Assembly: GCA_963750165.1 (NCBI GenBank)
Contig: CAVVPN010000003.1
Coordinates: 2,368,001 to 2,432,000, forward strand
Reading direction: 5' to 3'
DNA: 64,000 nt
Source of the DNA: an uncultured Gemmataceae bacterium
GTDB taxonomy: Bacteria; Planctomycetota; Planctomycetia; Gemmatales; Gemmataceae
In this document: one piece after another, positions 26,267-60,885 of the stretch
Layout of the letters: every line of letters begins with the position of its first letter
Numbering within the stretch: the first letter of the stretch is position 1
Program-made: the position numbers and the translations under genes
The notes under the pieces: generated by a model
Told to the model about the DNA's origin: nothing
What the model saw: the letters and a program-made list of their open reading frames with translations, nothing else
Databases searched by the model: none

Positions 26267-26499
26267 ATCAGAAGCGCTGGAATGACAAGGGTTTAGAGAG
26301 GCATCTGCTGCAACAAAACTCTACCCGCTCGACTCGTACTGACTGGAGCGGTTCGCACGCGGATCGCGCCCGCGGTGGGACGGCGGGCACAGCTTGACCA
26401 GCAGGGGCCTGTACTGCCACAGCAAGGAGGCCAAGGGGGCCAAGGTTTGCACACGTCGAGAATCGGCGCCCTGGCCCCGTGCGGCTGGCACGGCGCGAC

Positions 26500-26703
26500 C
26501 ACCACATGCTGAATTCGTCATCCTCGGCGACGCGGCGCAGGAGTTCCGGGTCGGCCGGTCCAGCCCAGCAGGCCAGCCGTGCGATCCGCCCGGGTGGGTT
26601 CGGTTTGCACCTGGATCGTAACCCGTTGGTGTTCCTGGAGCGGCAACGGCTGGGCCGGCTTGAGCACGCCGTTTTCGTACACGGCTTCGACGGTGATGGC
26701 CAT
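26500..26703 (-). pseudogene. DUF104/AF2212-like antitoxin, frameshifted and truncated by a repeat
   Basis: MAITVEAVYENGVLKPAQPLPLQEHQRVTI; shifts frame to DPELLRRVAEDDEF, then runs into the dispersed repeat; no toxin partner. Confidence 0.65.
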
Positions 26704-37864: not shown

Positions 37865-38331
37865 CGTCGCGGAGCGCTCCCTGAGCTGGTTAGCGCGGTT
37901 CGCAGGCGGAGCGCGCACGGGTGGGGCGACGGGCACGGCTTGACCACCAGCGGCCTGCACTGCCACAGCAAGGGGGCCAAGGGGGCCAAGGGGGCCAGCT
38001 TTTTCATACGTCGAGAGTTGGCAACCTGGCTCCGTGGGGGTGGCACGGCGCGACAACCACCGGCGGCGGTTGCCACAGCAAGGACGCCAAGAACGCCAAC
38101 TTTTTCATACGTCGAGATGCGGCGCCTGAGAGCGCTGGCCTGCCGTTCGTGGTCCTTGCGACGGCAAACTGCTCCAGGGCCCACCCCGTTTTCCCCGCGC
38201 TGAAGGGGCACAACCGCGTTCGTGGTTGTGCCCCTTCAGCGCGGAACAGCAGCAGAGGTTGGGGCCCTGGCTCAGAGGGAAAAGGGGACGCGGACATTTA
38301 TCGGGGAGGAAATATGTCCGCGTCCCCTTTT
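37865..38331. repeat. Cluster of dispersed repeats and REP palindromes
   Basis: Two 9-mer/ACGTCGAG units, palindrome 38195-38244, AAAAGGGGACGCGGACAT...ATGTCCGCGTCCCCTTTT 38280-38331. Confidence 0.85.
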
Positions 38332-39344: not shown

Positions 39345-39410
39345 CCGTTCGCGGTCATCAAGAGAATAAGAGAAAAGGGGTCAGGTTGGCGGGAAAAACA
39401 AGAAAACCGG

Positions 39411-39500
39411 CCCGAACCAGGTGTTGCACGTGACGGGCAATCTAAGGTCAATCTGAAAACAATAAGTCGAGCGGCCCGCTCGTGAACTTTGTTGTTCGGC
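39411..39500 (+). other. attC site
   Basis: CCCGAAC...TGCACGTGACGGGC / GCCCGCTCGTGAAC...GTTCGGC imperfect hairpin. Confidence 0.85.
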
Positions 39501-40109: not shown

Positions 40110-40256
40110 AATAGGCGACGACTACGTAGGCCGCCGGGAAAAATCAAAGGGGTCGGGAGTCGATTCCGGAAAACATCAGAGCCGAACCAGAGTGCTGCTG
40201 CGGACGGGCCATCTGAGTCTACTCGGACACCTTAAGTCGAGTGGCCCGCCGCAGAG

Positions 40257-40484
40257 TTCTCCATGAAACCAATTTCCCCCTGATCGATGAAAAGGAGGCG
40301 AGCTAGGATAGAGGGCGTCTGGGGACGTGCTGTGGTCGTGACTTAGCTGGTGCATCGTGCCCGACGCAGAGTTGGACCCGGACGCCGCGAGGCACCCTGA
40401 TTTGGGCGCAGCGCCCATATGCCCGTGTGGGAGACTCCACCACCGCCGGCGTCTGCATGCTCCCTGGGCGTCTGGAGAACTCCG
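40257..40484 (+). ncRNA. Putative bridge/seek RNA region
   Basis: Segments matching the target (40340-48, 40359-71) and the circle junction (40427-33, 40473-83). Confidence 0.6.
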
Positions 40485-41732
40485 ATGGACGCGCTGCTCC
40501 CTGTCGTGCTGACCATTTGCTGCGGCATTGATGTCCACAAGAAGACCCTGACCGCCTGCCTCTTGAAGTCGGGTGCCTCGGGCGATGCGCTCGTCGAGCG
40601 CCGGGTCTTTCGGACCATGACCAGCGCCTTGCAGGAGTTGGCGCAGTGGTTGGTGCAGGCGGACTGTCGGCACGTGGCCATCGAGAGCACCGGCGTGTAT
40701 TGGAAGCCGGTGTTCAACATCCTGGAGCAGGCCGGCATTGAGGTCGTCCTGGTCAACGCCCAGCACGTCAAGAACGTGCCCGGACGCAAGACCGATGTCA
40801 AGGATGCCGAGTGGCTCGCCACCCTGTTGCGTGTGGGCCTGTTGCGCAGTAGTTTCGTGCCCCCCAAGGAAATCCGGGAACTGCGGGACTTGACGCGCTA
40901 CCGCACGCAAGTGATCCGCCAGCGCGCCGACGAGAGCAACCGTATCCAGAAGTTGCTGGAGAACTGCAACATCAAGTTGGCCGGCGTGGCCAGCGACGTA
41001 CTGGGAGCCAGTGGCCGAGACATGTTACGCAGCCTGGCCGAGGGCGTGGACAGCCCCGCCGTACTGGCCAACCTGGCGCGGGGCCAGCTGCGTGCGAAGA
41101 TCCCGGAATTGGAGGAAGCGCTGCGCGGGGTGATGAGCGCGACGCAGCGCTGGTTGCTGCGGGAGCAATTACAGAAGGTGAGCGACCTGGACGACGCCAT
41201 CGTCCGCTTGGATGCGAAGATCGCCGAGGTGTGCCTCCCGTTCGCGCAGGCGCTCGCGCTGTTGGACCAGATTCCCGGGGTGAACCAGCGGACGGCGCAG
41301 GTGATCGTGGCGGAGGTCGGCCTGGACATGAGCCGCTTTCAATCGGAGGGGCAGTTGGCGTCGTGGGCGGGGATGTGTCCAGGCAACCACGAGAGCGCTG
41401 GCAAGCAGAAGAGCGGCAAGACGCGCAAGGGCAACCGCTGGCTGCGGCAGGCGCTGGTGGAGGCGGCGCGGGGAGCGGCGAACACCAAGGAGAGCAGTCT
41501 GCGGGCGACGTACCATCGGATCAAGGCACGCCGCGGGGACAAGCGGGCCTGCCTGGCGGTGGGGCACCGGATCTTGCGGATGGCCTACACACTACTGAGC
41601 AAGCGCCGGCCGTACCAGGAAGAGGGGCCGGACTATTACCGGACGGCAGACAAGGACCGGCTGAAGGAGAGGCTGGTGCGGCGGCTGCAGAGAATGGGCT
41701 ATGAGGTGACCGTGGCGGAACCGGCGGCCTGA
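40485..41732 (+). CDS. IS110 DEDD recombinase
   Basis: GIDVHKK, IESTGVYW, KTDVKDA, IPGVN, SWAGMCPGNHESAGK, GNRWLR. Confidence 0.95.
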   Translation: MDALLPVVLTICCGIDVHKKTLTACLLKSGASGDALVERRVFRTMTSALQELAQWLVQADCRHVAIESTGVYWKPVFNILEQAGIEVVLVNAQHVKNVPGRKTDVKDAEWLATLLRVGLLRSSFVPPKEIRELRDLTRYRTQVIRQRADESNRIQKLLENCNIKLAGVASDVLGASGRDMLRSLAEGVDSPAVLANLARGQLRAKIPELEEALRGVMSATQRWLLREQLQKVSDLDDAIVRLDAKIAEVCLPFAQALALLDQIPGVNQRTAQVIVAEVGLDMSRFQSEGQLASWAGMCPGNHESAGKQKSGKTRKGNRWLRQALVEAARGAANTKESSLRATYHRIKARRGDKRACLAVGHRILRMAYTLLSKRRPYQEEGPDYYRTADKDRLKERLVRRLQRMGYEVTVAEPAA

Positions 41733-41857
41733 GCAGGACCACCCACGACGGTCCCCTCGGTGGACACAGTCCCAGAAATACATTTTCGTGGGAGCTATGT
41801 CGTTCGGCGGCGGAGAGGCGGCTGTAGATTTACTATCTTGCAGACAGAGAGGATCTC

Positions 41858-42418: not shown

Positions 42419-42589
42419 CGGCGTGCGGTCGCTCCGCCGAACCAGGCGCTGCACCTGACTTGCCTTCAGATTACAGGCATTTTACGCAGTCGCCGGGACA
42501 AAGTGAAGGACAAAGGCCGTGAATTGTCCCGCCAAGATTGTCCCGAAGGCCACGGCAGGCGGGGTGGCGGTCGAGCCTGGGTATCAGAA

Positions 42590-42904
42590 ATGGAACCACA
42601 CTTTTTCAGGGATGCCAGTGACCGCCTCACGCATGACAGAGCGGATATTGACTCCTCTTCGTATCCCGAAGTTTGCAGAACGGTCGCCGACCACTTCAAC
42701 CTGAAGCCGTTGTCAGAATTGGTCATCGGGCTTGACCAGATGTTTTGGGATTTTACGAATGGCACATTGGCCGTAGAGCTTGCGTGGGACAACTGGCTTT
42801 GTTTCACAATCACAGCAAAGGAGCCAGATGCAGAAGCACTTGTATGCCAAATGGCAGCTTTCCTATCGGAGACTCGACCGCCAAAGTTGGATTCATCACC
42901 CTGA
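42590..42904 (+). CDS. Hypothetical protein
   Basis: 104-aa ORF convergent with the Rep-like gene. Confidence 0.6.
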   Translation: MEPHFFRDASDRLTHDRADIDSSSYPEVCRTVADHFNLKPLSELVIGLDQMFWDFTNGTLAVELAWDNWLCFTITAKEPDAEALVCQMAAFLSETRPPKLDSSP

Positions 42905-43702
42905 AACGGCTGTTACCACATCGTCCATGCTGGAAATCCACCCAGCAGGAACACCAAAATAGCCCACCGAGCGACGAACCCGCTTCAACGAGAAGTAGCC
43001 CTGAATGAGTTCATGGAGTTCAAGGGCATATTCCTCCGCACCGGGTTGTTGAAGCCCCTCACTGATCTTCCGCTCCTGTTCCTTGATCTCTTTCCAGATG
43101 TCCTCCTTGTTCATGCCGGTCGGCCAAAATAGGCCGATGGTTCCGTACTTCCGCATCTTAAGTTCTTGCCGAAGCAGGACACGCTTCCTGTTCCATCGGT
43201 CATGGCTGACGATCTCACCGTTCTTATACTTCGCCGTCCTCGCCTTCGTCATGTAGCGGACGGTGAACCGGCCTTCGGCGGGGTCGTACTTCTCCACCTT
43301 GATGTTGGTCTTCACGTCGTCCACCGCAAACTTCACCAACTCCGACAGGTTCGGCGTCTGGCTCCGTAGTAGCATGTGGTAGTTGAAGCGGTTGCTACGG
43401 CGGCTGACTTCGCAGATGTAGAGGGCGACGACGTTCTTGCCCTTCAAGTAGCGGCACACCTTCGACCACAACACCTTCATCTCGGCGGCGGTCAAGTCCT
43501 GCATGATGTTGATGGAGGCGAAGAACGTGAACTCGTCCTTGAAGTAACGGTGTCTGGCCCACGCCACACAGCGGGAGAGCTTGTCGGCCTCGTAGATGTA
43601 CCCGTCCAGCGTGTACCAGCCGTCCTCTTGGAAGCCCAACGGACGGACACGCTTCTTGGGGCGGCATTGATACAATCTCTCTGGTGAGGTACTATCTACC
43701 AT
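42896..43702 (-). CDS. Rolling-circle Rep-like HUH endonuclease
   Basis: FASINI (motif 1-like), E..RFNYHMLL (motif 2 variant), RYMTK (YxxK motif 3). Confidence 0.6.
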   Translation of the reverse strand: MVDSTSPERLYQCRPKKRVRPLGFQEDGWYTLDGYIYEADKLSRCVAWARHRYFKDEFTFFASINIMQDLTAAEMKVLWSKVCRYLKGKNVVALYICEVSRRSNRFNYHMLLRSQTPNLSELVKFAVDDVKTNIKVEKYDPAEGRFTVRYMTKARTAKYKNGEIVSHDRWNRKRVLLRQELKMRKYGTIGLFWPTGMNKEDIWKEIKEQERKISEGLQQPGAEEYALELHELIQGYFSLKRVRRSVGYFGVPAGWISSMDDVVTAVSG

Positions 43703-43777
43703 AGCTTTCGGAACCCGCCGTGCTTGGGTTGCAGTTCGGTACGGCGGGTTTCTTCGTGTTGCGATTTCACGATGCTG

Positions 43778-44053
43778 TCAGTCAGGCGATCTCCACTGCC
43801 GACCGAACTTGACGGTTTCCCAGCCGAATGGAGCGGCGGCAAAACCTTCCCTTTCATCGCCGTCGCCCATGATGATTACATCCCCCAGCTTACTCTCGTA
43901 CTGGTCAAACACCTTGGCAATGCTCTCGGCATCCAGTACCAGATGTTCGTGGTACTCGTCGGGGAACCTTGCCCCACGCATATCGGTGAGAGAGCGAGGA
44001 CGCCAACTGCCATGTCCTTCGGTGTTATCGAGGCGGTAGACGACAGCTTTCAT
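43778..44053 (-). CDS. Hypothetical protein
   Basis: 91-aa ORF co-oriented with the element's operon. Confidence 0.55.
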   Translation of the reverse strand: MKAVVYRLDNTEGHGSWRPRSLTDMRGARFPDEYHEHLVLDAESIAKVFDQYESKLGDVIIMGDGDEREGFAAAPFGWETVKFGRQWRSPD

Positions 44054-44070
44054 TGTGTATGTCCAGAAGG

Positions 44071-44478
44071 TCAGGAGTTGTCCGCTGCCGGTCGAGAGGG
44101 CGATGTCGTGAAAGTCGTATTATATCTACCAATCTCGGATGCCCCTCGCAGGTCGCTTTCGACTTGCACGGCCTGACGTGCCGCCTCGTCGTGGAAGTTG
44201 AAGAAGTTGGCGTACTCCGGGTAGTCAATAACCATCTGCCGGGCCATCATCGGGAGGAAGTCGTTCGACACCTTGTAGCCGACGTACTCTCCCACCGACA
44301 TCTCCCACCGTATGCGATTACCGATCAGGTTCGCTCCGCAGCGGTCGTGACCGGCTTTGCGGTACATCTCGGAGAACTGTCGGAACAAGGCGTACACGGT
44401 CTGGCCGTGCTTGGTGTTGATCCACTTCTGGAAACGGTCGTACTTCTCGTTGGTGTACCGGGAGAAGATACCGGGCAT
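44071..44478 (-). CDS. Phage-type hypothetical protein
   Basis: VY..F....NRIRWE...YKVSND..PMMAR...P..ANFF pattern resembling uncharacterised phage proteins (from memory, not searched). Confidence 0.6.
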   Translation of the reverse strand: MPGIFSRYTNEKYDRFQKWINTKHGQTVYALFRQFSEMYRKAGHDRCGANLIGNRIRWEMSVGEYVGYKVSNDFLPMMARQMVIDYPEYANFFNFHDEAARQAVQVESDLRGASEIGRYNTTFTTSPSRPAADNS

Positions 44479-44585
44479 GGATGTAATGTTCACGCCGGTA
44501 TCTATGCACCGGCGTTTCATTTTACCCGAATTTTTCCCGACTCGGTGTACTTCATGCCCAACAGGACGGCTGACACCTGAACTGG

Positions 44586-44867
44586 TCAATCATGAGGCTG
44601 CGGCTGAAAGAGAAGGAAAGTTTCTTCCGGGGTTGCCATGAAACGGTTGATCCGCTCGGCTTCGTCTGGCCCTGCATCGGCGGGGTACTCGTCGTGCAAG
44701 AATTGGAGGACATCAGCTAAGGGCCACGGCCCCAGCGAAGTCATATAGTCGTCGAACTCGTCCTGTATCTCTCGCCACGTTGAATATGGCTTCTTCGTTA
44801 GCAGCACTGGCCCGCTCCGCAGATACACGATATGTAGCAACACGTCGATGATGGGTGTAGTGTTCAT
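44586..44867 (-). CDS. Hypothetical protein
   Basis: 93-aa ORF in the operon. Confidence 0.55.
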   Translation of the reverse strand: MNTTPIIDVLLHIVYLRSGPVLLTKKPYSTWREIQDEFDDYMTSLGPWPLADVLQFLHDEYPADAGPDEAERINRFMATPEETFLLFQPQPHD

Positions 44868-44881
44868 GTTGTCGAAGTCAC

Positions 44882-45295
44882 TCAGTTGAAGTTGCCGACA
44901 TCGAAAAACGTCCCTTCTTCTGGAACGAACATCACGGCTCCCGGTAGCTTCTCCTCCAAGTCTTGCAGCAAGAAGACGAAGTGGTTGAAATGCTTCATGT
45001 CGTAGTCCTTGTCCGCACCGATGCTGACCCACTTGTCACACGCAGTCAACTGCTCCTTGTCAGTCCGCTCGGAGCCGTACCCGGCCACAATCTCTTCCGA
45101 CTCCTTGCGGACGCTCTCTCCTGCTTCGTAATAGACTCTCAGCGACCAGTCGCCCCACCGTACTTCCACACGACTTCCTTCAACATGTATCTGTGCCGCT
45201 CGATCTCGCCCGTATGTGTCGGTGACCAAGGCTGCGAGCTTTGTCGCAGACATGTCAGTCGTCGGTGGCAAGAAAATGATCCTGTCGTATGGCAT
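44882..45295 (-). CDS. Hypothetical protein
   Basis: 137-aa acidic globular ORF. Confidence 0.65.
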   Translation of the reverse strand: MPYDRIIFLPPTTDMSATKLAALVTDTYGRDRAAQIHVEGSRVEVRWGDWSLRVYYEAGESVRKESEEIVAGYGSERTDKEQLTACDKWVSIGADKDYDMKHFNHFVFLLQDLEEKLPGAVMFVPEEGTFFDVGNFN

Positions 45296-46422
45296 AGTTC
45301 GTCGTCCTGTTGCTGCCGTTCAGAAACAAGAAAGCACACATGGTCATGGTGGAGCAGACCGGGGTTGATGGAACCAGTTTCCAACTTTTTACATTCGTAT
45401 TTCCGTGTTCTTAACTCTTCAACAAGGGCTGAGGGCGAACTGGAGGCTGTAAAGAACACGGACTTGGCCCACCCCCTTGAACGGCTCCCACACCACTACC
45501 ACAACACCGAGCAGGAGGCCAACAAGGACACGCAACCCCCGCAAAAAGCAGAGGTTGCGGTGTGTACTACTTCGGAACTCTGAACCGACGTATTAACCAG
45601 TCGGCGGGCTGTCCGCTGCCCGGCACAGGGTGGTTAATACTGCTGTTATTACTCCTTTTCCTCGTCGCCGCCGAACACCTTCGCCCGCACCATGTCCAGT
45701 GCCTTGTCGAGCTTGGCGACCTGGGCGTCCGTGAGGTTGCAGACGTAGCTGCTGTAGTGCGTGCCGTACCCTTCGGCCCGGTACAGGATGCGGCTCTCCT
45801 CCTCCCCGGTGAGTTCCTGTATCCACTGAGCCACCGTCTTCCGCAAGGCCATGTGTTCGGGCAGGCCGTACTTGTCCCGAAGCTGCTGGTACGCCCGTTC
45901 AAGCTGCCCCCGGTACAGCTTGTACTCCTTCCGCTCCTTCTGCGGGTCGTGGCCGTACTGGAGAACGGCCAGCGTTTCCGGCCACAACTTCCACTTCGAC
46001 ATGAAGCCCTTCTGTACCCCGTCCCGCTTGTTCTTCGCCCTCGCCTTCGTGACGTGGCTCTCGTCGCAGTGCTTGGCCTGTAGCTCGGCGATGTCCGACC
46101 AGTAGAACCCGCAGTTCAACCCCAGCAGCAGACCGACACGCTGAAGCCCGGTGGCGTGCTGGAGGGCGAGTTTGACCTGAGCCAACTCGTACTTCGTCTG
46201 GTCGGGCGGCGGCGTGTGGATGCGGTACTTCTTGTTGCGGACGAACGGGAACCGCAGGTCGTCCCGGTCGGCCTCCAGATGCTTCAGGAACGTGTGGATG
46301 ATCCGCTGGCGGTTCTGCTTGGTCCGCTGCGTCCAGCCTTCGGCCTGCTGTGGTGTGCTCCCCAAAAAGTGGTCCAGGTGGTATGAGAGTCTCTGAGGCC
46401 CTGCGGGGCCAGGAGACGAACC

Positions 46423-46695
46423 ATGAAGCGACACACGGCTGAAGAGGTCATCACCAAGCTGCGGCAGGCCGAGGCCGACCTGGCCCAGGGGCTTGGCGTC
46501 GCCCAGGTCTGCCAGAAACTCGGCGTCAGCGAGCAGACCCTGCACCGCTGGCGGAACCAGTACGGCGGCCTCAAGCAGGACGAGGCCAAGCGGCTCAAGG
46601 AACTGGAGACCGAGAACGTTCGCCTCAAGCGCCTCGTCGCCGAGCTGGCCCTGGACAAGCAGCTGCTCCAGGAGGCCGTCCAAAAAAAGTGGTGA
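46423..46695 (+). CDS. IS3 OrfA
   Basis: KRHTAEEVITKLRQAE HTH, leucine zipper; A7G slippery site at 46682-89. Confidence 0.93.
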   Translation: MKRHTAEEVITKLRQAEADLAQGLGVAQVCQKLGVSEQTLHRWRNQYGGLKQDEAKRLKELETENVRLKRLVAELALDKQLLQEAVQKKW

Positions 46696-47600
46696 CCGCC
46701 GCCCAGCGCCGCCAGCTGGCGCGGCACCTGCAGGAGGCGTTCGGCGTGTCCGAGCGCCGCGCCTGCCGCGTGCTGGGGCAACCGCGCTCCACCCAGCGGC
46801 AGGTCCCCCTTCCCCAGGAGGAGGAAGGCCGGCTGGTCCGGCGCATCCTGGAGCTGGTGCGCCAGCACCCGCGCTACGGCTACCGGCGCATCTGGGCGCT
46901 GCTGCGCCGGGAAGGGTGGCGGGTCAACCGCAAGCGCGTCTGGCGGCTGTGGCGGCAGCAGGGGCTGAAAGTGCCCAGGAAGCAGCGGAAAAAACGGCGG
47001 CTGGGCTCCAGTGCCAACAGCTGCGTGCGGCGGCCGGCGGAGCACAAGGGCCACGTCTGGGCGTGGGACTTCCTGCACGACCGGACGGCGGACGGCGGGG
47101 CGCTGAAGTGGTTCACGCTGGTGGACGAGTATACGCGCGAGTGCCTGGCCCTGGAGGTGCGGCGCGGCATGACGGCCCGGGCGGTGAACGCGGTGCTGGC
47201 CGGGGTGGTGCGGGAGCGTGGCGCACCGAGGCACATTCGCAGCGACAACGGGCCGGAGTTCATCGCCAAGGCGATCCGGGCCTGGATGACGGGGGCGGGC
47301 CTGGAGACGCTGTACATCGCGCCGGGGGCGCCGTGGGAGAACGGGTACGCGGAGTCGTTCAACAGCAAGGTGCGCGACGAACTGCTGAACGCGGAGGTGT
47401 TCGGCAGCCTGCGGGAGGCGCAGGTGCTGGGCAAGGCATGGAAGCACGAGTACAACCACGTCCGGCCTCACAGCTCGTTGGGGTATCGGACGCCAGCGGA
47501 GTACGGGGAGATGTGTCCTCGGGCCGACTCCGCTGCGCTACGCCAGCCCGAGGACACATCTGTGACGGTTGATCCGACTCTCACAGCGCCTGGTACATAA
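46689..47600 (+). CDS. IS3 OrfB (rve integrase), expressed via -1 frameshift
   Basis: YGYRRI, WAWDF, DEYTRE, RSDNGPEF, PWENGYAESFN, RPHSSLGY. Confidence 0.95.
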   Translation: MVTAAQRRQLARHLQEAFGVSERRACRVLGQPRSTQRQVPLPQEEEGRLVRRILELVRQHPRYGYRRIWALLRREGWRVNRKRVWRLWRQQGLKVPRKQRKKRRLGSSANSCVRRPAEHKGHVWAWDFLHDRTADGGALKWFTLVDEYTRECLALEVRRGMTARAVNAVLAGVVRERGAPRHIRSDNGPEFIAKAIRAWMTGAGLETLYIAPGAPWENGYAESFNSKVRDELLNAEVFGSLREAQVLGKAWKHEYNHVRPHSSLGYRTPAEYGEMCPRADSAALRQPEDTSVTVDPTLTAPGT

Positions 47601-48793
47601 AATGGGGGCAAGCCAGCTGCTCTCGGTCGAGGATTTCAAGGAAGCGGCGGTAGTGCTGGACCGTGATCTCGGTCAGCCGGATGTGGCCGGTCGCCTCAAG
47701 GAACAAGTCCATCGCCCGCTTGATGTCGTACCACTGTTTGTTGTCCTTCTTCTTGTAGCTGTCGATGTACGCCTTCGCCTCCACCGTGAGGCTCACGTCC
47801 TTCGGGATGGCCCTGCTCTCAGCAAGGTCGTTCAGCACGCTCGCCGTGATGATGCCCTCGCCCCCGTCGAGGGCCACCAGAGCCGCCGCCTGTCGCATAT
47901 CGGGGTGGACGGCAGGACCGTCCACATGGTCGATGTCCCAATCTGGCACGGTTCGGGCATCGGCGAGTTCTTCTTCAAGCTGGGCCGTGTCCCGGCCCTG
48001 CTCCTTGAACTCCGTGATGAACCCCTCAAGGCTGGCGATGCGGGTCGGGATCGGGGTCGGGCCGAGTAATTCGGCGGCTTTCTCGGCCCGCTTGAGCTTC
48101 AGGTACTTGAGCCAGTACGGGCGGCTCCCCTTCTCGCTGTTGGGGACCGCTTCCTTGAACGACTCCTGAAGTTGCTGGGTGGTGGCCGACACCTTGAGTT
48201 CCTTCGTTCGGAGCTTCCACTGCTTCTTGTCGTGGTCGAATGTTCCGTTGCCGTGAACCGCCATCTCGTCCATTGCCTTACCCCCTGCAACCCGCTATTC
48301 CTTGTATTGTCCCGAACTTTGCCCCTCCGGTCAATCGTCCCGAAGAGGTTTAGGACGTTACTTCTGATCTGGCAATCGGTTGCACTGCGTCAGGCGGGTG
48401 CGTTGGGGGCAAAACGGTCTGTCGCTGCACCTGACCGGGGCCGCCATACTGGTTCTCCGAGGCGCCAAGGTTTTGCAGGCGGCCCCGGCAGGTGAGGTTG
48501 GTTGTTCGGCTTGGCTGGCGTCATAAATGGTGTAGCACCATAGGTTTAAGCGATTCGGAGCCGCGTGGCTTAAGACGCGCGTCTCGTCGGAACCGCGAAC
48601 CGCCTTGGCCCACCAGGCGTGGCGTGCAGTCCAGGAGCGGCGGGAAGCCTCCGATCCGTTGCTACGGCGAGGCCATGCGTTCCCGCTCGCTGCGGTGGGG
48701 TCTGGTTCCCTGGTTGCCACCAGCCCACGCGATCTATCCCGAGGCAACCGGCCGGCACTTGGAACGCAGAGTTCAGCGCAACTGGTCCGCCCA

Positions 48794-48888
48794 GCCGAAC
48801 CCGCCGTTGCACGAAACCGGGCGCGCCTCCCGGTCCCTCTGACGGTGAGTCGGCCCAGCGCGCCCGGTTCGTGAACTCTGCGTTCGGC
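48794..48888 (+). other. attC site
   Basis: GCCGAAC..TGCACGAAACCGGGCGCGC / GCGCGCCCGGTTCGTGAAC..GTTCGGC. Confidence 0.88.
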
Positions 48889-49319: not shown

Positions 49320-49418
49320 GCCGAACCAACGGATGAAGCTGACCGGGGCCGCCATCCTGGTTTCGCGCGGCATGAAGGTCTTGCAGGCGGCCCCGGCAGC
49401 TTATCCTTATCGTTCGGC
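49320..49418 (+). other. attC site
   Basis: GCCGAAC..AAGCTGACCGGGGCCGCC / GGCGGCCCCGGCAGCTTAT..GTTCGGC. Confidence 0.9.
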
Positions 49419-50019: not shown

Positions 50020-50116
50020 GCCGAACCAGCCGTTGCAGCAGACAGGGCGGGCAGCACGGCTTTCCGAGGTTCAACGTCTTTCCAGCCCGCCCTGCTGCTG
50101 AACTGGGTCGTTCGGC
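50020..50116 (+). other. attC site
   Basis: GCCGAAC..TGCAGCAGACAGGGCGGGC / GCCCGCCCTGCTGCTGAAC..GTTCGGC. Confidence 0.9.
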
Positions 50117-50425: not shown

Positions 50426-50436
50426 TGTTACGCTAT

Positions 50437-50486
50437 GCCGAACCAAACGCTGCACCTGAGGGAGGAAAAGGGAACGCGGACATTTT
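50437..50486 (+). other. Truncated attC fused to a REP half
   Basis: GCCGAACCAAACGCTGCACCTGA then GGAAAAGGGAACGCGGACATTT. Confidence 0.7.
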
Positions 50487-50525
50487 TCTTGACGGTGAAC
50501 CGGGGTCAGCCGTCGTCCGGTGGCG

Positions 50526-60607: not shown

Positions 60608-60885
60608 CGATTGCGGATTTTGGATTGCGGATTGCGGATTCGTTGTGGCACGGTCTGCGGATTCGTTGTGGCAGGGTCTCCTGACCGTGCCACGGATCCT
60701 GACCGAAGGTCTCCTCCGGGTAGAAGCAGGGAGACCTTCGGTCGCAGAGAGTGGCTTGGTCCGGAGACCAAGCCACAACAGAGGGTCGCAGAGAGTGGCT
60801 TGGTCCGGAGACCAGGCCACAACAGCCACAACAGAGACCTTCGGTCGGACCGAGTGGCCTGGTCCGGAGACCAGGCCACAACAGA
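60608..60885. repeat. REP cluster within the atp operon
   Basis: GATTGCG heptamers and three GTGGCYTGGTCCGGAGACCARGCCACAACA palindromes. Confidence 0.85.

Follow-up and report, generated by a model that had tools for sequence, protein, structure and literature searches.

A 64,000-nucleotide stretch of DNA from an uncultured Gemmataceae bacterium (the window) contains an insert that splits an integron attC site within its L'' box. Comparison with related loci indicates that this insert is very probably an integrative element that encodes the lambda-type tyrosine integrase responsible for its movement and prefers the attC L'' box as its attachment site. The split attC, 99 nt in length, is separated into two parts by 5,963 bp at 42460–48422 (4,694 bp without an IS3 and one copy of its target duplication). 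An exact 13-nt repeat, CGCTGCACCTGAC, flanks the insert at 42447–42459 and 48423–48435. The R box GCCGAAC and a spacer adjoin the left side of the first core copy, and the remainder of the attC lies to the right of the second copy, terminating with GTTCGGC at 48510. The features of the split site are:

42436–42459, plus strand: left-hand segment of the split attC, consisting of R'' box GCCGAAC, spacer CAGG, and L'' box plus core, which provides attL with its B arm and core
42447–42459, plus strand: core copy 1, matching copy 2 in all 13 nt and beginning with the family-wide 7-nt crossover core, CGCTGCA
42460–48422, minus strand: the integrated element (5,963 bp; 4,694 bp when the IS3 is subtracted)
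48423–48435, plus strand: core copy 2 (attR), an exact repeat of copy 1
48436–48510, plus strand: right part of the split attC, with stem, variable loop, L' and R' (GTTCGGC)

When the two flanks were joined by script, they formed an imperfect hairpin of 99 nt (−30 kcal/mol) with the shape of the intact neighbouring attCs at 48794–48888, 49320–49418 and 50020–50116. The segment 48409–48510 scores 46 bits with our own covariance model (R1), which was built from 12 attCs of this genome and is distinct from that of IntegronFinder. The exact repeat, the restored hairpin and the model score bear out the proposal of the initial annotation that a single attC was cut and its core duplicated around an insert of about 6 kb (about 4.7 kb without the IS3). 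Matches to CGCTGCACCTGAC number three, compared with 0.15 expected, and three or more were reached in none of 100 shuffles.

The host genome encodes a genuine integron integrase on another contig (C4:1198898–1199845; TIGR02249, 426 bits, cut-off 265). That contig carries at least 53 attCs, detected as model hits on the minus strand at C4:1150001–1198013; this array lies on the strand opposite to intI (plus) and ends about 0.9 kb from it. The array in the window lacks an intI and is therefore a CALIN. Four intact attCs and the restored site fold as imperfect palindromes, R''-L''...L'-R', with bulged bases and a variable loop. The R boxes of the host attCs read GCCGAAC and GTTCGGC. On one side of an attC the R-box consensus is RYYYAAC, from which the host box deviates at position 4. 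The consensus given for the other side is GTTRRRY (PMC9892861). Besides the R boxes, CAGG-CGCTGCA-nnnGAC is the most conserved segment of Gemmataceae attCs, and an identical 24-nt left half occurs in intact attCs of six other genomes, one of which is nearly identical to the restored site. Two further attCs of the window are relevant here:

40182–41808, plus strand: adjacent attC into which an IS110-family element (about 40257–41794; transposase 40419–41732) is inserted between L' and R'
50437–50521, plus strand: terminal degenerate attC of the array, with the same left half and 12 of 13 core nucleotides, a potential further target

The third CGCTGCACCTGAC copy, with one mismatch, lies in the terminal attC at 50448–50460, so the previously noted recurrence of the core downstream is real; however, this attC, although of the same subtype, is weak (18 bits, E = 0.035) and does not represent a second junction.

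The recombinase of the insert comprises 451 residues and is interrupted in frame by an IS3-family element:

45652–46350, minus strand: integrase C-terminal 233 aa (catalytic part)
46351–47615, plus strand: IS3-family insertion sequence, with orfA at 46423–46695 and orfB at 46689–47600
47620–48273, minus strand: integrase N-terminal 218 aa, whose reading frame runs on into the C-terminal part when the IS and one copy of its duplication are deleted

The IS3 is bounded by a 4-bp duplication, GCTG, at 46347–46350 and 47616–47619. Contigs of two public runs join 46346 to 47616 and represent the IS-less form. Because its only integrase copy is broken by the IS3, the element is stuck in this genome; for the window copy, neither a circle nor an empty site was seen.

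The element integrase is matched by no Pfam, NCBIfam or PHROG model. PF00589 (Phage_integrase) finds neither the two fragments in the window nor 11 homologues, and no NCBIfam match to TIGR02249 was obtained for P0001, P0007, P0011 or the copy of locus L009. The AF2 model of P0001, an intact homologue with 99% identity, has a pLDDT of 81, and a Foldseek search against the PDB returned XerA, lambda Int, Brujita Int and Tn1549 Int in the first 17 ranks (E = 2e-5 to 1e-3, probability 1.0), with 19 chains at E ≤ 0.001. A small three-stranded sheet is formed by residues 17–37 of the model and may correspond to the N-terminal arm-binding domain of heterobivalent integrases. The distant relative P0012 passes PF00589 (33.7 bits, cut-off 27.1) and aligns to the profile of the integrase family at 98.4% probability. 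The catalytic residues of tyrosine recombinases are R-K-H-R-H/W-Y. As assigned by eye across 11 integrase sequences, K330, R394, H422 and Y426 are conserved and H390 is nearly invariant; the position of the canonical first arginine is occupied by an invariant asparagine, N303, and an invariant arginine, R295, is found eight residues upstream. By its predicted fold, the element integrase is a tyrosine recombinase. Its split gene is located at the right end of the insert, in agreement with the tyrosine recombinase initially proposed for one end.

An intact attP is present in the free phage contig L095. It reads GTCTT-G-TGCAGCG-G-AAGAC, an inverted repeat (GTCTT / AAGAC) around a core that is present once, and is flanked by CGGGACAA repeats on both sides. 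This attP and the L051 attR nearly coincide from the core inwards and are unrelated outwards. The 7-nt overlap CGCTGCA lies between inverted core sites, GTCnnn and nnnGAC, and both attP arms contain putative arm-type repeats, which are CGGGACAA in the clade of the window element and AAGGGTAGA in a second clade. The corresponding repeats in the window are:

42494–42545, no strand assigned: P' arm with three perfect copies of CGGGACAA, which may serve the integrase as arm-type sites
48307–48342, minus strand: P-arm repeats, CGGGACAA at 48307–48314 and CGGGACGA at 48335–48342, in a layout common to phages L002 and L095

All five exact CGGGACAA copies in the 64-kb window fall within the element, four of them near its ends. 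The arm-repeat layout is the same in L002, L051, L052 and L095, and the int gene is located about 130–180 bp from the core.

We examined 29 loci with integrase homologues, the window included, for junctions, and found the same junction anatomy in 17 of them, which are integrated elements. The core is CGCTGCA, as in the attC L'' box, in 15 of the 17 (the exceptions are CGCTGGA in L078 and CACTTTA in L053), and B' conforms to nnnGAC in 15 of the 17. All are integrated in the same orientation, with one junction reading R''-spacer-core-P' and the opposite one P-core-stem-L'-R'. An attC at the junction was called by the model with E < 0.01 in ten elements (the window, L002, L004, L005, L009, L051, L052, L075, L078 and L096), and more weakly in three others (L006, E = 0.031; L003, 0.13; L010, 0.25). 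In L009, the attC is seen on the attR side, but the attL flank has no R'' box. Two elements are inserted in ordinary genes, L050 in a PSCyt1 gene and L008 in a DJ-1/PfpI gene; these sites contain the core and lack a hairpin. The remaining two, L053 and L079, are ambiguous, and none of the 17 junctions is at a tRNA. Host genera and occupied attCs vary among the loci, and since the attC stems also differ (CCTGA, CCGGA, CCAGA, GCAGA), the insertions are independent events. Where both junctions are visible, in six elements, they share 13, 13, 7, 9, 7 and 13 nt. The attL/attR identity is as short as 7 nt in L008 and L010, and the overlap is therefore at most 7 nt. In the window, the identity extends to 13 nt because the stem of a common attC subtype begins with the same bases as the P' arm of the element (CCTGAC): the 13-nt core of the initial annotation is a genuine exact repeat, but the crossover core shared by the family is the 7-nt CGCTGCA. 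To judge from these junctions, attC is the preferred attB of the integrase family. The proposed use of attC as attB is upheld by this test of the homologues' flanks, with the qualification that secondary sites in genes exist.

Could attC be merely an occasional secondary site, the primary one being a gene or tRNA elsewhere and the window a chance landing? L008 and the nearest relative whose junction is visible, L050 (integrase 89–99% identical), do lie within protein-coding genes. Yet attCs make up only on the order of 0.1% of this genome, as a rough regular-expression count, and account for 10 of the 17 junctions, or 13 with the weak calls; tRNAs account for none, and the P' arm itself copies the start of an attC stem. 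This explanation is accordingly quite improbable. It is even harder to credit that IntI or a transposase, and not the element's integrase, delivered the insert, either as an oversized integron cassette or as a transposon that duplicated 13 bp of its target. Its position within a cassette array, bounded by attC sequence and a direct repeat, is what such an origin would leave. However, the exchange point of IntI is G|TT in the R box (PMC9892861), whereas this element is joined to the attC within L'' and brings no attC with it. Insertions that arose independently show one and the same repeat sequence, of which the free attP has a single copy, and the sole transposases within the insert are those of the IS3, which has its separate 4-bp duplication.

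The integrase might instead recognize the same target in the manner of IntI, as a folded single-stranded attC whose recombination is resolved by replication instead of a further exchange of strands in duplex DNA. The attC is a structured hairpin that is normally used single-stranded, and the core is situated in an L box adjoining the conserved GAC. We nevertheless regard this mode of action as unlikely. Inverted core sites, a 7-nt overlap and arm repeats give attP a classic duplex layout; the two insertions in ordinary genes have the core without the hairpin; the core is retained at both junctions, as reciprocal exchange predicts; and the element integrase has no TIGR02249 match. For the lambda-type integrative element that we favour, recombination would take place on double-stranded attC via a Holliday junction, as in lambda. 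The occupied attC would then be split, and the cassette to its left could no longer be excised by IntI alone.

The element integrase resembles lambda Int, Tn1549/Tn916 Int and Brujita Int in its fold, and its system resembles theirs in the inverted core sites, the 7-nt overlap and the repeats on two arms. The proximity of int to the core and the carriage by temperate tailed phages are likewise shared with lambda-type systems. In contrast to lambda-type integrases, the protein goes unrecognized by sequence models and is atypical at the position of the first catalytic arginine, and its target is an integron attC rather than a tRNA gene or intergenic site. IntI, one of which is present in the same genome, is also a tyrosine recombinase acting on attC, but the element exchanges in L'', 11 nt inside the R'' box, instead of at G|TT, and its attP is of the duplex type, with candidate arm sites. 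Insertion in one orientation is also the habit of IS1111-attC elements and group IIC-attC introns, which employ a DEDD transposase or a reverse transcriptase-ribozyme, respectively. Unlike the element described here, they are not known to have an attP with arm sites, an excision–integration cycle or a cargo of 5–40 kb. The element shares with them the single orientation and the attC specialization for which both are described (PMC3001079, PMC11187229). The element encodes neither a DEDD transposase nor an intron reverse transcriptase; the DEDD transposases that we found belong to separate IS110 copies, whose insertion points are the R/L spacers rather than the L'' box. Another IS110-family element resides in the same attC that the L052 element occupies.

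The initial annotation knew of no tyrosine-integrase element on attC, for which a partial precedent exists. In the chromosomal integron of Vibrio anguillarum, the excision points of prophage Va_90-11-286_p16 are two predicted attCs sharing a 68-bp repeat, and the authors proposed IntI activity as the cause (PMC9892861). That account differs from ours in the length of the repeat, and its treatment of this prophage describes no dedicated integrase family, defined core or free attP (PMC9892861).

The remainder of the element comprises the gene of a Rep-like protein and five small ORFs, of which a single one lies on the plus strand:

42503–42904, plus strand: 133-aa ORF of uncertain coding status, over the P' arm region on the opposite strand; 94.5% amino acid identity in L003
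42896–43702, minus strand: Rep-like protein, 268 aa, candidate HUH-type initiator
43778–44053, minus strand: 91-aa ORF, no family match
44071–44589, minus strand: 172-aa conserved backbone protein, phrog_13625, function unknown
44586–45032, minus strand: 148-aa ORF, no family match
44882–45295, minus strand: 137-aa ORF, no family match

The 148-aa ORF overlaps the next one, and its real start is therefore probably further in. With the split recombinase, this inventory is that of the initial annotation, and the absence of capsid and conjugation genes noted there also holds, as searches of Pfam and PHROGs revealed no such families in the insert. For the Rep-like family no named relatives were found. 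The protein is 70–86% identical in L003, L008, L009, L010 and L052, and its C terminus is shorter than in relatives of 344–385 aa. The core of its predicted model has a pLDDT above 90. The best VIA-align match, of middling quality, is SIRV1 ORF119 (Z 7.5, rmsd 3.2, 109 aligned), followed by RepB of pMV158 (Z 6.0), Helitron (5.9) and TnpA-REP (5.4), with generic ferredoxin-like folds interspersed. HUH rolling-circle initiators combine an HUH metal motif with a catalytic YxxK. Across 23 sequences of the Rep-like family, Y169-x-x-K172, H128 and E117 are invariant and the metal motif reads H-L-L instead of H-U-H. The model makes the 268-aa protein a candidate HUH-type initiator.

The 172-aa protein is 68–73% identical in L003, L008, L009, L010 and L052, and 49% in L006. 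In four of five small elements whose integrase is only 33–40% identical to the window copy, the backbone, consisting of the Rep-like protein and a 134–172-aa protein, is still 68–86% identical; some small elements also contain a serine resolvase. The Rep-bearing small element may be a plasmid or a satellite of the related phages, and once excised it could replicate through the Rep-like protein. The pSAM2-type elements of actinomycetes are similarly small and integrative and pair a tyrosine integrase with a replication initiator; they differ in targeting tRNA genes and in possessing a gene for transfer. Compared with these elements as generally described, the window element has no recognizable transfer gene.

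Small satellite- or plasmid-like elements had been proposed as the users of attC. Small elements do use it, but they share it with HK97-type prophages of the same integrase family, which also occupy attC sites; two such prophages, L002 and L096, encode a terminase, a portal, a protease and a capsid protein. Sequence comparison indicates that a single integrase–attP module is common to HK97-type temperate phages and elements of 5–7 kb. A broader reading, which we put forward tentatively and hold to be somewhat doubtful, is that Gemmataceae arrays, both integrons and integrase-less ones, are a dedicated landing pad for a guild of mobile elements with this common module, the HK97-type phages and the Rep-bearing elements of 5–7 kb, that the small elements are phage satellites, and that lysogeny and satellite carriage are coupled to integron dynamics because each insertion splits an attC. 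If so, cassettes would be frozen, or the occupant would be moved along with a cassette by IntI.

To the known users of attC, namely IntI, IS1111-attC elements and group IIC-attC introns, the integrative element described here would add a classical integrase–attP system with the L'' box as attB, carried by tailed phages as well as small replicons. A second, independent attC-reading recombinase would help to separate the features of attC that are recognized as duplex DNA from those recognized in the folded strand. An apparently intact copy is present in the cultured strain Limnoglobus roseus PX52, which makes the system directly testable. Split attCs will escape integron finders, and since the integrases are invisible to Pfam and NCBIfam, such elements remain unannotated. 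Related elements, tailed prophages among them, sit at the same spot in other Gemmataceae, and cassette arrays are therefore also landing sites. Multicopy arrays would provide a reservoir of integration sites and physically link phage lysogeny to integrons.

The 13-mer CGCTGCACCTGAC is present as exact copies at 42447-42459 and 48423-48435, which flank an insert of 5,963 bp (42460-48422). A third copy, identical at 12 of 13 nt, lies at 50448-50460; three matches compare with 0.15 expected, and none of 100 shuffles reached three. The left copy is preceded by GCCGAAC and a short spacer, and the right copy is followed by a GC-rich stem and loop ending in GTTCGGC at 48510. Four intact repeats with the same ends (39410-39500, 48794-48888, 49320-49418 and 50020-50116) each form one imperfect hairpin with bulged bases (about -18 to -34 kcal/mol), and joining the flanks of the insert by coordinates produces a 99-nt site with the same fold at -30 kcal/mol. 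The right part of the interrupted site (48409-48510) scores 46 bits with R1, a covariance model that we built from 12 attC sites of the host genome, following looser regex-and-fold scans. The exact copies and the restored hairpin bear out the initial annotation, in which one attC was described as cut, with CGCTGCACCTGAC doubled around an insert of about 6 kb; the near-copy that it placed in an attC at about 50448 is also present. The attC at 50431-50521 was considered as another junction with an identical cut point; this idea was dropped, as the sequence runs on as a degenerate attC. The insert carries the described gene content, namely a split recombinase, a Rep-like frame and five small frames:

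48273-47620 and 46350-45652, minus strand: integrase (tyrosine recombinase), in two pieces
within the insert, minus strand: open reading frames of 137, 148, 172 and 91 aa
within the insert, minus strand: open reading frame of 268 aa, Rep-like
within the insert, plus strand: open reading frame of 133 aa
46351-47615, 1,265 bp: IS3-family element, with HTH_Tnp_1 and rve frames confirmed

The IS3 element has imperfect terminal inverted repeats and a 4-bp target duplication, GCTG. By our reading its insertion preserved the frame: removing the IS and one copy of the duplication yields an open integrase frame of 451 aa. In two public runs, contigs join position 46346 to 47616, skipping 1,269 nt and thereby giving an uninterrupted integrase gene, and a public assembly encodes a 458-aa protein (P0001) that is 99% identical to the integrase. 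The IS3-less contigs and the intact, near-identical homologue therefore indicate that the IS3 insertion is recent. No second integrase copy was found in the host genome, so the window copy, with its single, IS3-broken integrase, cannot move by itself. The cultured strain Limnoglobus roseus PX52 has a related element (NZ_CP042425, roughly 3.9116-3.9172 Mb) in which the integrase frame is open. Among the joints listed for four public runs at 80% likeness, none was a circle or excision joint; the contigs of these runs are short and silent on activity, and the runs contain at most 0.16 of the sampled words of the window copy. Because neither an empty site nor a circle was observed for the window copy, the case for activity of the element rests on comparative evidence.

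The window corresponds to C3:2368001-2432000 of the 9.6-Mb genome. An integron integrase is encoded on another contig, at C4:1198898-1199845 (NCBIfam TIGR02249, 426 bits against a cut-off of 265), and R1 finds 53 attC sites on the strand opposite intI between C4:1150001 and C4:1198013, the last about 0.9 kb from intI. The region (C4:1150001-1199845; loci L047-L049) has the canonical layout of a large chromosomal integron. A partial second intI-like frame lies at C4:1190279-1190728. The window contains no TIGR02249 match; the array at about 38.6-50.5 kb is therefore a CALIN, an attC array lacking an integron integrase. A neighbouring attC in this array is split between L' and R' by an IS110-family element of about 1.54 kb (40182-41808; DEDD transposase at 40419-41732) that resembles the IS1111-attC group. 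Two copies of a repeat of about 130 nt, 83-90% identical, lie 11.5 kb apart at 26374-26505 and 37920-38101, the latter immediately upstream of the start of the cassette array, and a 52-nt unit with a hairpin (GTGGCTTGGTCCGGAGACCAAGCCAC) occurs in three tandem copies at 60731-60885. Elsewhere in the host genome, dozens of copies of a nearly perfect palindrome, 65, 82 or 87 nt long, are dispersed across all large contigs (for example, C1:409673-409759, C11:419173-419259 and C4:501810-501891). The palindrome has attC R-box sequences as its ends (GCCGAAC...GTTCGGC) and could be a REP-like repeat or a miniature element derived from attC.

Our comparison covered 29 loci that encode an integrase homologue, the window included: nine full-length loci came from species-representative genomes, nine from metagenomes and two from IMG/VR, and a further eight from 252 surveyed Gemmataceae genomes; an integrase match was present in 15 of the 251 other genomes. 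Seventeen of the loci are integrated elements with the anatomy of the window's element; a further locus is a free form. A more distant clade accounts for six, in which the integrase gene occupies the opposite element end (L054, L055, L056, L058, L077 and L080); here, GCCGAAC-CAGG-core adjoins the element in L055 and a complete attC lies alongside L077, and the R'' box is absent from L054 and L056. The remaining five lack a recognisable core (L007, L057, L068, L076 and L081), L007 and L057 being the same Gimesia-type sequence.

The integrase-proximal junctions of the 17 elements, read in window orientation, run from a P arm ending in GGTCnnn through the core into the target. The core is CGCTGCA in 15 elements, CGCTGGA in L078 and CACTTTA in L053, and the target side begins with nnnGAC in 15 of 17. 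The three variable bases co-vary with their counterparts across the attC stem (CCTGA, CCGGA, CCAGA, GCAGA); the target side therefore derives from the host site, and each insertion arose independently. R1 places an attC exactly at this junction with E < 0.01 in ten elements (L075, 51 bits; window, 46; L005, 42.5; L096, 36; L052, 31; L009, 31; L078, 30; L004, 26; L051, 25.5; L002, 21). Three more combine a weak R1 match with a visible R box: L006 (E 0.031), L003 (E 0.13), where the site is probably a short attC, and L010 (E 0.25), whose far side has a perfect R''-spacer-core. This enrichment is not a chance effect, because attC sites make up only about 0.1% of the host genome by a rough regex count.

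Close homologues at unrelated sites could have made the attC in the window a secondary site. Two of the 17 elements lie in ordinary genes: L050, whose integrase is the closest (89-99% identical), interrupts a PSCyt1 gene, and L008 lies in a DJ-1/PfpI gene, the N-terminal part of which is cut off. L053 and L079 have no clear target class; an 82-bit attC lies 0.8 kb from the L079 junction. Secondary sites in genes therefore exist, but 10-13 of the 17 elements are in attC sites. The observation is confirmed, and its main interpretation, that attC serves as the attachment site of an integrase-bearing element, is supported. We also considered the P arm as a mimic of the R'' box and dropped this idea, as it is inconsistent across elements. 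In L009, the near flank is an attC and the far flank is without an R'' box. The sequence TAACATGTnAGG abuts the core where the R'' box would be expected in this element (L009:15414-15440) and, upstream of the integrase gene, in L054 and L056, hence at three loci and in two integrase clades, L054 and L056 being near-identical copies. In L009, TAACATGTnAGG places the core within a perfect inverted repeat, GTCAGG / CCTGAC.

Six elements (the window's own, L003, L008, L009, L010 and L052) show both of their junctions, and the far junction always runs from the target through CAGG, CGCTGCA and CCTGAC(T)TGCC into the element. It is preceded by an R'' box in the window and L010, and by GACGAAC in L003; in L052, the R'' box of the occupied attC is displaced by another IS110 copy, inserted between R'' and the spacer. 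The two junctions of an element are identical over 13 nt in the window, L003 and L052, over 9 nt in L009 and over 7 nt in L008 and L010, so the exchange takes place within CGCTGCA. The 13-nt core of the initial annotation is accordingly reduced to these 7 nt; the six extra matching bases in the window arise because one common attC subtype begins its stem with the sequence of the P' arm, CCTGAC. In an alignment of host-genome attC sites, the consensus L'' region consists of CGCTGCA and then nnGAC, in which A and C are invariant, and the element's target is the most conserved attC segment besides the R boxes. Six other genomes contain intact attC sites whose 24-nt left half is identical, among them L091, which almost equals the restored site. 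The cassette gene with an unoccupied attC was not found in 61 genomes (the host and 60 relatives), where only the attC left half matched, leading to intact attC sites of the same subtype.

The free form, IMG/VR contig L095, encodes a terminase, a portal protein, a head protease and a tail terminator. Beside its integrase gene, the core is embedded in a perfect inverted repeat (GTCTT-G-TGCAGCG-G-AAGAC) with CGGGACAA repeats on both sides. L095 and L051, which has an attC junction, are near-identical from the core to the integrase start and unrelated on the other side, a pattern that would be expected of attP against attR. L002 and L096 are prophages in attC sites, with genes for a terminase, portal, protease and major capsid protein; the L096 array holds two further attC sites of 64 bits each. 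The integrase family includes temperate phages. All five exact copies of CGGGACAA in the 64-kb window lie inside the element, four of them within about 130 bp of its ends, and the P-arm layout of the window matches that of the phages. In another clade (L003, L008, L009, L010 and L075), AAGGGTAGA repeats occupy the same places. The core and the candidate arm repeats are arranged as in the system of a lambda-type integrase that uses arm sites. A pattern search of the 252 Gemmataceae genomes found no free attP of the small elements; its single match was the attL of L009.

The integrase fragments and 11 homologues have no match in Pfam, NCBIfam or PHROGs, and PDB sequences, searched with a profile, yielded nothing beyond a chance match to keratin. 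An AlphaFold model of P0001, built on an 11-sequence alignment (pLDDT 81), retrieved XerA, lambda Int, Brujita Int and Tn1549 Int in the first 17 Foldseek ranks (E 2e-5 to 1e-3; 19 chains at E ≤ 0.001). P0012, which is distantly related, exceeds the PF00589 cut-off and aligns to the integrase family profile with 98.4% probability. All 11 sequences share K330, R394, H422 and Y426, and H390 is conserved almost throughout; where the first arginine is usually found there is an Asn without exception, and eight residues upstream of it there is an invariant Arg. The conserved residues are candidates for catalytic roles. The enzyme is not IntI: it lacks an NCBIfam match, and exchange occurs in the L'' box, as against G|TT.

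In the available portions of the literature searched, the mobile elements described as targeting attC were IS1111-attC elements and group IIC-attC (and IIB) introns, and an integrase-attP system whose attB lies in the attC L'' box was not reported. One partial precedent is the nearest case described: a Vibrio anguillarum prophage has excision points at two attC sites with a common 68-bp repeat, and its authors, in the text available, tentatively tied excision to IntI activity (PMC9892861). The accessible part of another report brings up attC for contrast only (PMC9345347).

The six elements with two visible junctions are about 5-7 kb long and share a backbone at the integrase-distal end, including the Rep-like protein (70-86% identical) and a 134-172-aa protein (phrog_13625; 68-73% identical); their integrases are as low as 33-40% identical to that of the window. 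L009 and L052 also encode a serine resolvase, and L052 carries a 668-aa cargo protein (L052:10039-12045, minus strand) in which WD40 repeats come after a sigma-70 region 4 domain. The Rep-like family comprises 72 clusters in public data, all without names and many on contigs of 4.5-8 kb, with no relatives in IMG/VR. The Rep-like model has a confident beta-alpha core, and its best structural neighbours are HUH nucleases (SIRV1 ORF119, Z 7.5; RepB of pMV158, 6.0; Helitron, 5.9; TnpA-REP, 5.4), with generic ferredoxin-like folds interleaved in score. E117, H128, Y169 and K172 are invariant. With moderate confidence, the modelled fold suggests that the protein is probably a rolling-circle-type initiator. 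No capsid, packaging or conjugation gene is recognisable in the small element, which may be either a satellite of related phages, whose integrase-attP module it shares, or an integrative plasmid.
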